Positions 2,839 through 4,087 of a stretch of DNA of 12,273 nt are shown here, piece by piece; position 1 is the first letter of the stretch, and every line of letters starts with the position of its first letter. The notes under the pieces were generated by a model. The model ran no database searches, was not told where the DNA came from, and was given only the letters and a program-made list of their open reading frames with translations. The stretch lies in NCBI GenBank assembly GCA_964509175.1, contig CAZDWO010000095.1:1-12273 (forward strand), read 5' to 3'. Made by a program: the position numbers and the translations under genes. Source of the DNA: an uncultured Saprospiraceae bacterium (GTDB lineage: Bacteria > Bacteroidota > Bacteroidia > Chitinophagales > Saprospiraceae).

Positions 2839-2970
2839 TAGGAATAGCAAGATTCGAACTCTCATCTTCTGGGTAGAAACCGCTTCCCATCACTTCGTGT
2901 TCCTTCTCTTGAATGTCTACTAGACATTCATACCTGCGGTAATCGTTCAGTCATGTTGAACTATATTCCT
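2839..2970 (-). ncRNA. 132-nt tRNA-like RNA with ~80-nt structured insertion in place of the anticodon arm (or insertion-disrupted tRNA pseudogene)
   Basis: Minus strand. Perfect 7-bp acceptor AGGAATA/TATTCCT, UA, D-arm GTTC-AACATGACT-GAAC, and T-arm GAGAG-TTCGAAT-CTTGC. No 5-bp/7-nt anticodon arm is present. In its place is an 8-9-bp palindromic hairpin (GAATGTCTA..TAGACATTC, 2911-2929), the long-range pair ACCGC/GCGGT, and a short variable-arm-like hairpin TTTCT-ACCC-AGAAG. Confidence 0.35.
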
Positions 2971-2981
2971 AATTAAAAACA

Positions 2982-3055
2982 GGGTGACCTCGAGACTCGA
3001 ACTCTGTTCTTCCCCGTCACAAGGAGATGTTTTACACACATAAACTAAAGTCACC
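2982..3055 (-). tRNA. tRNA-His(GTG)-like (weak T-stem; possibly degenerate)
   Basis: Minus strand. Acceptor GGTGACT/GGTCACC (7 bp) with discriminator C. D-stem GTTT/AAAC. Anticodon arm TCTCC-TTGTGAC-GGGGA (anticodon GTG). The T-loop TTCGAGT is present but the T-stem CAGAG/CTCGA pairs over only 3 bp, and the register between acceptor and D-stem is off by one nucleotide. Confidence 0.35.
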
Positions 3056-3071
3056 ATAATGGTCAGCAGTC

Positions 3072-3650
3072 TTATACTGCCAACCTAACTATCCTATTCT
3101 TAGATTTTGATTTAAAAGCCTTTGACTTAGTTTTAATTCTTTTTAGATCCGCTTCTATTTTATGGATCATGTAAGGATTAATACTTAGTGTTTTGACTTT
3201 TTTCAAAATCGTCTTTGCTTGTTTAAATTCACCTTTATACTCATGTATGTATGCCTGATGACTTAGAAGGATGGTTGCATCCATTCCTCTTACTCGTAAA
3301 CCATACTGGATAAGCTTCTGAGCTTGCTCATAATTACCTAACCAGATATTTAAAAGACTTGCATGTTTATAGGTATCGATATAATTAAGATCACCTTGTA
3401 GAGCTACTGTAAAACTCGCTAGAGCCTTTTGGTAATCTTTTAAGTGATACATATATATGAGTCCTTGCAAACAATTTGCAGGAGCATGCTCATCATCGTA
3501 ACTTAAAGCATAATTCAAATTTTCAACAACAAATTCTAAGTTGTACGGATAGTAATCTTTTGCTTTCAGATAATACTGATCGCCGATAGATAAGTCCATT
3601 TTTAAAAATTTATAATTAATCAATAAATATTGAGATGAGTCTTTACCCAT
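3072..3650 (-). CDS. tetratricopeptide-repeat (TPR) protein
   Basis: 192-aa ORF made of repeated ~34-aa units with Y/L/A periodicity (..YYLKAKDYYPYNLEF.. ..YQKALASFTVALQGDLNY.. ..YEQAQKLIQYGL..). The inverted repeat TGAGATG/CATCTCA (3634-3657) overlaps the start codon. Confidence 0.55.
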   Translation of the reverse strand: MGKDSSQYLLINYKFLKMDLSIGDQYYLKAKDYYPYNLEFVVENLNYALSYDDEHAPANCLQGLIYMYHLKDYQKALASFTVALQGDLNYIDTYKHASLLNIWLGNYEQAQKLIQYGLRVRGMDATILLSHQAYIHEYKGEFKQAKTILKKVKTLSINPYMIHKIEADLKRIKTKSKAFKSKSKNRIVRLAV

Positions 3651-3770
3651 CTCAGAAATCAGGTTTTAGGATTTCTCCAAAATTTAATTTCATAGGCGTT
3701 CTTTTTGTTAAAAATATTTTCGTTGTTGTTAAAATAATGGGCTATTTCTTAAATCAGAATTCTTCGTTTT

Positions 3771-3925
3771 CATACCCATCCTTTTCTTCAAGTAGTAAGT
3801 CTTGTTCCGATATTGATATATCGGTTCAATCATTTTCCATTGACATTTAGTCAATAGAATTTGTGATAAAATCACAAAACACTCATTCATCCCTTGGCCA
3901 AGGGAAGGATTAAAGGATGGGTATG
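3771..3925. repeat. 155-bp element bounded by 14-15-bp perfect terminal inverted repeats (tCATACCCATCCTTT ... AAAGGATGGGTATGa)
   Basis: 3771-3784 is the exact reverse complement of 3912-3925. The interior carries the two-hairpin repeat (3807-3855), the hairpin TTTGTGAT-aaa-ATCACAAA (3860-3878) and the palindrome CCCTTGGCCAAGGG (3891-3904). The same termini and core are found in the mini-element at 2783-2836. Confidence 0.4.
3807..3855. repeat. bipartite two-hairpin repeat, copy a (CCGATAT-tgat-ATATCGG ... ATTGAC-attta-GTCAAT)
   Basis: Direct repeat of 5240-5288. The 17-mer ATTGACATTTAGTCAAT and the flanking TCGGTTCA are identical in both copies. The first stem differs (CCGATAT/ATATCGG versus CCGAAAC/GTTTCGG) but stays fully paired, and the tgat loop is identical. 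Confidence 0.45.
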
Positions 3926-3941
3926 ACTTCCCAAAATCTAG

Positions 3942-4087
3942 TACGGAAAGAGAGACTCGAACTCTACTTTTCTATAAAAGATGAATCCTAGCTGGAGGAC
4001 GGAGCATCCAGTTCCTTCACTTTACATGGTGCATTTAGCACCTTGTAATTCGCCAAGAGGCGAATCGCTCAGTCTTATCATTTCCGT
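3942..4087 (-). ncRNA. tRNA-like RNA with ~100-nt structured insertion (contains structured repeat copy 1) or disrupted tRNA pseudogene
   Basis: Minus strand. Perfect 7-bp acceptor ACGGAAA (4087-4081) / TTTCCGT (3948-3942). T-arm TAGAG-TTCGAGT-CTCTC preceded by the variable-arm-like hairpin CTTTT-ATAG-AAAAG. No canonical D-arm or anticodon arm. The interior is three hairpins. Confidence 0.3.
3985..4079 (-). repeat. ~95-nt structured repeat, copy 1 (three hairpins)
   Basis: Homologous to 4275-4368. Hairpins (minus sense): ATTCGCC-TCTT-GGCGAAT, GGTGC-TAAAT-GCACC, and CTGGA..TCCAG. The differences from copy 2 are compensatory (GGTGC/GCACC versus AGTGC/GCACT; the loop differs while the stem is kept). 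Confidence 0.45.

Follow-up and report, generated by a model that had tools for sequence, protein, structure and literature searches.

The RtcB Locus and Its tRNA Array

Downstream of a gene for an RtcB-family RNA ligase, an uncultured population of Saprospiraceae (Bacteroidota) carries an accessory array of tRNA genes, several of which are chimeras of tRNA sequence and a hairpin-rich structured module. Here, we analyze these chimeras in a stretch of 12,273 nucleotides (assembly GCA_964509175.1, contig CAZDWO010000095.1, positions 1 to 12,273; hereafter the window). Two of them, el1 and el2, had been described in an original prediction, made from the letters alone, as tRNA-like RNAs with intact ends and a large structured insertion in place of the anticodon arm. 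We take the chimeras to be tRNA-derived RNAs or pseudogenes of an rtcB-linked array, probably created by an undescribed structured repeat.

All coordinates follow the numbering of the window, and el1, el2, a third chimera el3, the modules and the array all lie on its minus strand. Read along that strand, the locus consists of the RtcB gene (5299-6672; PF01139, E=4.6e-34), a small open reading frame (ORF) with a terminator, a leader ORF with a second terminator, the tRNA array (2701-4506), a composite tRNA-like RNA and a Band-7/SPFH gene. Divergent from RtcB is a regulator gene with a WYL/WCX domain match (6724-7776, plus strand), and this WYL-RtcB pair is kept in almost all of the 59 related RtcB loci that we fetched for comparison. 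The array, as delimited by ARAGORN and Rfam, contains five ordinary tRNA genes (37-62 bits), which encode tRNA-Asp (4431-4506), tRNA-Glu (4189-4262), tRNA-Gln (4107-4178), tRNA-His (2982-3055) and tRNA-Met/Ile(CAU) (2701-2775); a TPR gene known from the domain and ORF listing (3072-3650, minus strand) is embedded among them. The same DNA occurs in five independent contigs (JGI, ENA, Logan) with at least 99.9% identity over the array, one of the five being 98% identical and differing solely across the RtcB/WYL part. Since five independent assemblies agree, the array sequence is not an assembly artefact.

An RtcB-linked accessory tRNA array is conserved across the relatives. In a subset of the loci the order Asp-(Pro)-Glu-Gln-Leu(UAG)-Leu(UAA)-[TPR]-His-(Arg/Ile), which the window shares, recurs after RtcB; the array lies downstream of the ligase gene in L003, L004, L006, L019, L031, L034, L229, L230, L231 and L233. 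In L042, L043 and L045 it precedes the ligase gene. The closest array-bearing relative is L229, with about 76% nucleotide identity across the locus.

Two Chimeras With tRNA Ends

The element el2 (3942-4087) derives from a tRNA-Leu(UAG) gene, intact orthologues of which exist in nine loci. Its acceptor stem pairs ACGGAAA (4081-4087) with UUUCCGU (3943-3949) at all seven positions and is accompanied by a discriminator A; its T arm, AGAG-UUCGAGU-CUCU (3951-3965), is identical to that of the orthologous tRNA-Leu, and next to it stands a class-II-type variable hairpin of 5 bp, CUUUUAUAGAAAAG (3967-3980). On the 5' side just the 5' acceptor strand and two nucleotides are left, and on the 3' side the variable hairpin, the T arm and the 3' acceptor strand, the last 25 nt being 100% identical to the tRNA-Leu of L229. 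Neither the D arm nor the anticodon arm survives; in their place stands an insert that we call module M2 (3985-4074) and that consists of hairpin P1 (4047-4066), hairpin P2 (4024-4046), a joiner (4012-4023) and hairpin P3 (3992-4011).

The element el1 (2839-2970) derives from tRNA-Arg(ACG), with an intact orthologue at the equal position in L229. AGGAAUA (2964-2970) and UAUUCCU (2840-2846) again form an acceptor stem without a mismatch in its seven pairs, position 2839 is the discriminator A, and the T arm, GAGAG-UUCGAAU-CUUGC (2847-2863), has four of its five stem pairs and one mismatch. Positions 2955-2970 correspond to tRNA nucleotides 1-16; the following 73 nt (2882-2954) are the inserted module M1, with its 5' segment AUGACUGAAC, its P2 hairpin (2910-2931) and its joiner AGAGAAGGAAC (2899-2909); and the remainder (2839-2881) comprises a remnant of the anticodon loop, the variable loop, the T arm and the 3' acceptor strand. 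These 73 nt stand in place of 12, which in the orthologue extend from the D loop to the 5' side of the anticodon stem, so that the 3' D-stem strand and the 5' anticodon-stem strand have been replaced; downstream of the insert the anticodon loop persists in degenerate form, as UUUCUAC in place of UUACGAC, together with the 3' strand of its stem.

The perfect 7-bp acceptor stems and the T arms that had been predicted around the hairpins are therefore borne out in both elements. Variable-arm-like hairpins had likewise been claimed for both; the one in el2 is genuine, but el1 has no true variable arm because its ancestor was a class I tRNA-Arg. A large hairpin insert (about 75-100 nt) is indeed present in each, but its extent had been misjudged, as more than the anticodon arm is missing from el2, which loses the D arm too, and el1 loses only 12 nt. 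Both elements combine an acceptor stem with a T arm whose loop reads UUCGANU, and neither has the complete cloverleaf of a canonical tRNA. ARAGORN, run by default or with introns allowed, calls a tRNA in neither of them, and neither has a match to the Rfam tRNA model at the gathering threshold or at E<=10.

A Third Chimera and Free-Standing Copies of the Module

The original prediction had missed a third chimera and two free-standing copies of the module (5231-5292 and 3798-3859). The third chimera, el3 (4275-4403, minus strand), sits between tRNA-Asp and tRNA-Glu and joins a 5' fragment from a Pro-like tRNA (4370-4403, reaching the 5' strand of the anticodon stem) to module M3 (4275-4364). 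The tRNA fragment has alignable Pro-like counterparts in L034 and L006. The chimera has neither a T arm nor a 3' acceptor strand, and tRNA-Glu follows directly after it. The first free-standing copy, M4 (5231-5292, minus strand; 81 bits), is a core module with P2 at 5269-5291 and P3 at 5240-5257, and begins just past the stop codon of RtcB. The second, M5 (78 bits; P1 3860-3878, core 3798-3859), is nested in one arm of a hairpin domain of about 155 nt, H2 (3771-3925, minus strand), which has a closing helix of about 14 bp (3912-3925 with 3771-3784), an apex hairpin (3890-3905) and, closing helix included, a minimum free energy of -60.1 kcal/mol. H1 (2783-2836, minus strand), directly 3' of el1, is a long imperfect hairpin with arms like those of H2, uninterrupted by any module. 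H1 and H2, whose inverted arms are long (AUACCCAUCC...GGAUGGGUAU), represent a second repeat family, and each of the chimeras el1 and el2 has a copy of it on its 3' side.

A Repeat Family of Covarying Hairpins

The core of the module is composed of two hairpins, P2 with the loop UA(A/G)AU and then P3, between which lies an A-rich joiner that has GAAC at its end; the full module adds to this core a 5' segment GA(C/A)UGA and, optionally, hairpin P1. The window holds five copies, three joined to pieces of tRNA (M1-M3) and two free-standing (M4 and M5). M2 and M3 are 82% identical over 90 nt; M1 is highly diverged from both and is therefore not a recent local copy. A covariance model was built from four copies, to which the remaining copies were realigned, and was searched against about 1.04 Mb of the related loci. 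It recovers all five window copies, four of them strongly and M1 weakly (E about 0.9), matches L229 at 2888-2953, and finds three copies in L031 (55-72 bits), one of which is on the opposite strand (4489-4550). Weak matches also occur in L031 and, with filters off, in an insertion in L003; there is no other convincing match in the 1.04 Mb, the next best having E values of about 1 to 8. In an alignment of eight copies, which was fitted to the model but whose hairpins are also evident by eye, 99.3% of the stem cells are paired, as compared with about 35% in controls with slid partners, and compensatory changes on both sides are found at 14 of the 17 stem pairs.

The hosts of the module are varied. 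Within the window it occupies Leu, Arg and Pro-like frames and one arm of H2. In L003 (12114-12362, plus strand) a Pro-like tRNA that is complete in its acceptor, D and anticodon (UGG) arms carries, inserted into its T loop, a rod of about 190 nt (minimum free energy -86.6 kcal/mol, z=-6.4); a diverged module core stands at the tip of the rod, which, like H1 and H2, has long inverted arms. In L031 (4775-5085, plus strand) two tandem units on the array strand each consist of the 5' part of a tRNA and a module, placed after Phe-like anticodon arms; the 5' part of the first unit, with a Phe-like (GAA) anticodon arm, scores 27.8 bits on the tRNA model. One or two more copies lie on the opposite strand of this locus (4420-4550, minus strand), just upstream of its first tRNA. 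Most arrays (L004, L034, L006, L230, L231, L233 and L236) have no module at all. In its multiple copies, its empty sites in L229, and its varied contexts and orientations (both strands in L031), the module behaves as a small mobile or recombining structured repeat would.

Rfam holds no family for the modules of the array and of L031, at the gathering threshold or at E<=10, the only matches being chance-level ones to C/D-box, miRNA and plastid families; the module is an undescribed structured repeat. In viral contigs, a pattern of the M1-M3 type gave 1 hit that looks like chance, a looser pattern gave at least 120 matches that we consider noise, a pattern of the M4 type gave none, and none of the 30 hits of a second viral pattern fitted the covariance model.

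Several known identities for the module were considered and rejected. A hammerhead or other self-cleaving ribozyme was suggested by the presence of CUGA, but the CUGANGA/GAAA core varies between copies, as judged by reading, and there is no Rfam ribozyme hit. That the 5' GACUGA might pair with the UGA..GAAC of the joiner as in a kink-turn or C/D motif is suggestive only, the flanking stems being unsuitable, and was dropped. Mimicry of helix 44/45 of 16S rRNA or of the sarcin-ricin loop produced no convincing alignment. Lastly, the mini-ORFs that open at the AUG of the joiner (MKELDAPSSS and others) lack the start in M1, begin with GUG in M2, and encode peptides that are not conserved.

Intact tRNA Genes in the Relatives

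In L229, an intact 84-nt tRNA-Leu(UAG) gene occupies exactly the position of el2, and an intact tRNA-Arg(ACG) gene (L229 3960-4032), between tRNA-His and tRNA-Met(CAU), exactly that of el1. An intact tRNA-Leu(UAG) fills the el2 slot in eight loci besides L229: it follows tRNA-Gln in L003, L004, L034, L230, L231, L233 and L236, as it does in L229, and tRNA-Glu in L006. L229 is also without H1 and without the segment 3714-3940, which includes H2 and M5. In BLASTN comparisons of the elements with the 59 RtcB loci, the tRNA-derived ends were the sole matches. The shared array positions and the homologous ends establish el1 and el2 as tRNA-derived genes by orthology, and since those ends are orthologous to real tRNA genes the stems that they form are not due to chance. 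Among the origins that the original prediction had offered, tRNA genes split by a small repeat is consequently the best supported: intact orthologues exist in L229, the insert is a multi-copy repeat, and the comparison with empty sites that it had proposed, now carried out, is positive for both elements.

The junctions provide some indication of how the replacement may have come about. L229 has an el3-type element of its own, with a different junction, at which 14 nt of the Pro-like gene are left, and with tRNA-Glu missing. The short sequence AAC|AUGACUGA at the junction is common to this element and el1, and the junctions of el2 show short homologies as well (GGAA(A/G)U on the 5' side, CAGC..UAG on the 3' side). 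Recombination between array units at such homologies could explain why the tRNA body was replaced rather than interrupted.

Possible Remodeling by a Resident Repeat or Display on a tRNA Frame

The explanation that we prefer, and in which we place roughly even confidence, is that el1 and el2 are spare tRNA genes remodeled by a recombining or mobile structured repeat that resides in the array. The repeat would have proliferated inside the array in this lineage, and either recombination at short homologies or transposition would have exchanged the D/anticodon region for a copy of it. The array is presumably transcribed as a unit from its own promoter, behind a switch formed by the leader peptide and terminator, and the retained minihelix of acceptor stem and T arm may still direct RNase P and 3'-end processing; if so, the chimeras would accumulate as tRNA-capped hairpin RNAs unable to decode. 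They would be by-products of the spread of the repeat, neutral or mildly useful, and not substrates for splicing by RtcB. The Leu(UAG), Arg(ACG) and Pro-like genes would by this means have been removed as decoders; Leu(UAA) is also missing from the window array. To judge from their remaining parts, the products of the chimeras could still be processed at their ends but cannot decode, and such a loss of decoding fits both the lack of any default tRNA call and the leader, a run of whose codons matches the intact tRNAs.

A number of observations weigh against remodeling by a mere repeat. The covarying stems and the conserved loop and joiner are maintained across genomes whose RtcB proteins are 70-85% identical, which implies selection on the fold, something that a decaying insertion does not need. 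All copies lie within arrays, and there are none in the other intergenic DNA of about 50 kb from the module-bearing genomes (5-21 kb inspected in each); about 10 of the 12 run in the same direction as the array (sense). The module shows no terminal inverted repeats and no target-site duplications, and there is no transposase in the inspected DNA. A scan of metagenome contigs with a pattern of the M1-M3 subtype gave 43 hits, all of them chance-looking and in GC-rich coding DNA, and a genome-wide dispersal is thus unproven. The tRNA-derived ends of the chimeras are only about 2-4% diverged from L229, as against about 24% locus-wide, and the acceptor stems of el1 and el2 are both perfect. That the inserts belong to a generic genome-wide repeat, which the original prediction had named as a refuting outcome, is not established; they are multi-copy, but in the inspected DNA they are confined to tRNA arrays, and their stems covary.

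Some of these features lend weight to the main rival explanation, which on balance we think unlikely but which has to be taken seriously: that the chimeras are dedicated tRNA-scaffolded RNAs. The module would be a functional RNA mounted on tRNA-derived clamps and might serve, for example, as a decoy, sponge or sensor of nucleases that target tRNAs or as the partner of a protein encoded in the locus. RNase P, RNase Z and CCA-adding enzymes would then process and stabilize a natural version of the engineered scaffold. The strong covariation with a conserved loop and joiner, the confinement of the module to RtcB- or TPR-linked arrays in the 1.04 Mb searched, and the predominance of sense copies would all be expected of such RNAs. 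So would the repeated display of the module on a closing helix, be it the acceptor stem (el1 and el2), the helix of about 14 bp in H2 or the rod in the T loop of L003, and the preservation of perfect acceptor stems and of T arms that are nearly intact (one mismatch in el1). Moreover, YrlA-type tRNA mimics provide a precedent in RNA-repair operons (PMC4201824). Against this, the chimeras are specific to the lineage, ordinary tRNAs being found at their positions in L229 and in all other relatives, and the absence of a 3' half from el3, together with the free-standing M4 and M5, indicates that the tRNA frame is not intrinsic to the module. The many arrays that lack the module, its antisense copies in L031 and the broken T-stem pair of el1 speak against it as well.

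In engineered tRNA scaffolds, a cargo RNA replaces the anticodon arm and the construct undergoes RNase P and 3'-end processing and is protected from nucleases; the D arm is kept. The design of el2, a frame of acceptor stem and T arm with a cargo in place of the anticodon region, is the same, except that el2 has no D arm and is known here from its sequence. A further step, which we regard as quite improbable, would be to see in the module a new class of functional RNA that is displayed on tRNA-derived clamps, is made on demand from a stress-switched, RtcB-linked array, and acts in the response to RNA damage. If that were true, the chimeras would be matured by the enzymes of tRNA processing and might, for instance, act as decoys or sensors of toxins that cleave tRNAs or work in partnership with the RtcB, TPR or Band-7 proteins.

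These loci add an undescribed covarying module of RNA or single-stranded DNA and natural examples of cargo RNA in a tRNA frame. They also expose a conserved neighborhood of WYL regulator, RtcB and tRNA array in the Bacteroidota, in which the unusual anticodon loops of the array tRNAs, and a leader-peptide/terminator switch that may respond to the loss of just these tRNAs, make the notion of backup tRNAs against tRNA-cleaving toxins testable. A practical warning is that tRNA-derived chimeras escape the standard tRNA finders.

The Splicing Hypothesis and RtcB

Intron-like precursors were another of the origins that the original prediction had offered. Under this reading the chimeras would be intron-containing pre-tRNAs, the insert of which is cut out by an endonuclease or by self-cleavage and the halves of which are joined by the neighboring ligase. 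RtcB does seal RNA ends of the 2',3'-cyclic phosphate and 5'-OH type, and its gene lies on the same strand, about 1.2-2.3 kb upstream. Furthermore, ARAGORN with a lowered threshold (-ps95) and with introns of as much as 200 nt permitted models el1 as a 95-nt class-II-like tRNA-Leu(CAG) with an "intron" of 38 nt at 37/38, composed of P2 plus the joiner. This explanation is nonetheless largely refuted already, and we deem it very unlikely to be correct. The exon itself is missing relative to the intact orthologues (the D and anticodon arms of el2, 12 nt of el1), and since the insert replaces about 12-35 nt of the tRNA body its excision cannot rebuild a tRNA; el3 is wholly without a 3' exon. As noted above, ARAGORN with its default settings calls neither element even with introns allowed. 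By reading, there is no 3-4-3 bulge-helix-bulge at the junctions of el1 (CGCAG|GUAUG ... ACACG|AAGUG), no splicing endonuclease domain occurs among the proteins of the window, and no intron or ribozyme family, group I included, matches at E<=10, the inserts being 73-90 nt long as against about 200 nt or more for a group I core. The chimeras resemble the known intron-containing tRNAs, which have either a bulge-helix-bulge or a group I intron in the anticodon loop, in the extra RNA of the anticodon region and in the presence of RtcB, the ligase of protein-dependent splicing; they differ from them in the missing exon and in having neither a bulge-helix-bulge nor a group I core, nor an endonuclease gene in the window. 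Thus, el1 and el2 are not bacterial spliced tRNAs, and a function of RtcB as a splicing ligase is not shown here. As to the significance that had been attached to the nearness of RtcB, the neighborhood of WYL regulator, ligase and array is conserved, but nothing in it points to splicing; the link of RtcB to the array is real but indirect.

Comparison With Known tRNA-Like RNAs, Arrays and Repeats

An acceptor stem and a T arm that flank a large structured insertion in the place of the anticodon arm are, formally, the layout of transfer-messenger RNA (tmRNA), and a match resembling YrlA, a Y RNA-like RNA, lies nearby (2278-2376). That el1 and el2 belong to such a known class, as a miniature tmRNA or a YrlA, is nevertheless most improbable. 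The tmRNA search of ARAGORN is empty, and the Rfam models of both tmRNA and YrlA miss the two elements. Position 3:70 is G-C in both and not the G-U of alanine identity, and the short ORFs of the module keep, by reading, neither start codon nor peptide from copy to copy. In comparison with a tmRNA of about 350 nt, el1 and el2 are only 130-146 nt long and have no G3:U70, no conserved tag ORF and no pseudoknots. The YrlA RNAs (RF02553; PMC4201824) are likewise tRNA-derived, non-decoding RNAs of RtcB RNA-repair neighborhoods with features like those of a T arm and acceptor. Their topology, however, is the opposite: they are permuted, so that their ends lie in the position of the anticodon stem and form the Ro60-binding stem, and their acceptor is a closed hairpin, whereas the acceptor ends of el1 and el2 are open; furthermore, the window contains no Ro60/Rsr (TROVE) gene.

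The YrlA-like match falls within a composite tRNA-like RNA, about 300 nt long, that terminates the array on its 3' side, before the Band-7 gene (2257-2545, minus strand), which is recognized by partial tRNA hits and by a sub-threshold match to RF02553 (36.1 bits at 2278-2376, with a gathering score of 69). False YrlA hits are known to arise from tandem tRNA-like units (PMC4201824). After a conserved 5' element (GUUUCUGUAUAGC..CAGU), the composite RNA has two T arms, between which lie first a closed acceptor-like hairpin and then D arms, and lastly an anticodon-like arm; it is conserved in L004 (9770-10010), L034 (15720-15960), L031 (5995-6240) and L229 (4290-4560), as well as in L233, L234, L236 and L239.

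Finally, the idea that the resemblance to tRNAs is due to chance, or that the sequence is an assembly chimera, has nothing in its favor except the metagenomic source and deserves practically no credence in view of the five concordant assemblies and the orthology of the ends to tRNA genes.

As for the array itself, a precedent is provided by the cyanobacterial L-arrays and the Anabaena trn operon, which are stress-induced sets of extra tRNA genes, near rtcB or co-regulated with it, some of whose members are pseudogenes, and for which the role of a "sponge" against tRNA-cleaving toxins has been proposed (PMC8421152). Like these, the present array is a cluster of extra tRNAs that stand apart from the housekeeping tRNAs and are linked to rtcB. 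It differs in its Bacteroidota host, in its shortness (5-9 genes), in its position directly downstream of the WYL-RtcB pair, in the embedded TPR gene and the Band-7 gene that follows, in having a leader ORF and terminator instead of the direct repeats of a promoter, and in that several of its genes are chimeras with a structured repeat.

The module, for its part, invites comparison with short bacterial repeats. The BOX, Correia/NEMIS and REP/BIME elements are multi-copy, hairpin-forming sequences akin to miniature inverted-repeat transposable elements; they are modular, nestable and polymorphic, occur in either orientation and are co-transcribed with their surroundings. Our module is similarly short, multi-copy, modular and rich in hairpins, can be nested (M5 in H2), occurs in both orientations, and is polymorphic for presence or absence among relatives; it would likewise be co-transcribed with the genes around it. 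Unlike those elements, its copies are not nearly identical but differ by compensatory changes, it is seen only in tRNA arrays, and no terminal inverted repeats or target duplications are visible.

Leader ORF and Anticodon Loops

Directly upstream of the first array tRNA lies a putative attenuator (4537-4728, minus strand), composed of a leader ORF of 42 codons (4600-4728) and an intrinsic terminator (4537-4574). A leader ORF of 36-49 codons, ending about 20-40 nt ahead of a strong intrinsic terminator, is conserved in the window and in L003, L004, L006, L034, L229, L230, L231, L233 and L236. The window leader contains the run CAG GAG CAG GAT CAT, or Gln-Glu-Gln-Asp-His, which matches its intact tRNAs; in relatives with intact Leu and Pro genes the leader reads Leu-Asp-Leu-Leu-Pro-Glu-Glu (CTG GAT CTG TTA CCG GAA GAG in L230). 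Codons read by array tRNAs make up 36.6% of the pooled leaders as compared with 27.2% of the RtcB genes (binomial p=3e-5, the leaders being related and not independent). From its codons and its terminator, this looks like leader-peptide attenuation that senses the loss of array tRNAs. For an induction of the array under translational or tRNA-damage stress, leader and terminator are an indirect indication only.

Two of the ordinary tRNAs of the array have unusual anticodon loops. Both tRNA-Asp (loop CUGUCUC) and tRNA-Glu (loop CUUUCUA) carry a U at position 37, where normal tRNAs have a purine, and a pyrimidine at this position of the Asp and Glu genes is conserved in the window, L003, L004, L006, L031, L034 and L229. 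To judge from the loops alone, they may have been altered to resist anticodon nucleases.

Variation Among Arrays and Other Conserved Features

Arrays with a TPR gene and without an adjoining RtcB are present in L234, L236 and L238, the last two of which have the Band-7 gene as well; the unit of array, TPR and Band-7 genes is therefore separable from RtcB. Additional RNA-repair genes follow some of the arrays: in L034 (13525-15553, plus strand) a second RtcB and a protein with an RF-1 domain, and in L003 (12882-14456, plus strand) a DUF2828/DUF7788 protein. In the Flavobacteriaceae relatives L042 (7524-7996), L043 (6326-6891) and L045 (8895-9046, all plus strand) the array upstream of RtcB is a different one, with tRNAs for Tyr, Asp, Glu, Lys, Asn(AUU) or Asp(AUC), and Phe; its A34 anticodons, ATT and ATC, are unusual. 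Structured spacers unrelated to the module stand between tRNAs elsewhere, as a rod of 119 nt in L231 (5525-5643) and as a GC-rich segment of about 300 nt in L239 (1166-1480, plus strand), and array spacers therefore seem liable in general to receive structured inserts.

The small ORF of about 37 codons that follows RtcB is conserved (about 5065-5175 of the window, minus strand) and has a Cys-rich C-terminus in the window. Past its terminator, and upstream of a promoter element of the Bacteroidetes type (TAnnTTTG), are two conserved palindromes, CAATTGGGAGACAGACTATTG and TAACTAATTGATAATCAGTAA (about 4780-4960, minus strand), which from their placement are candidate operator sites for the array. 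A hairpin, UGAGAUGGG-AAAG-(A/U)CUCAUCUCA (3631-3654, minus strand), is located just upstream of the TPR gene and is conserved in L230, L231, L233, L234 and L236. It overlaps the first ATG of the TPR ORF as listed; in L229, L230, L231 and L233 the TPR start lies past the hairpin, and the true start of the window gene is thus probably also downstream of it, at about 3599.

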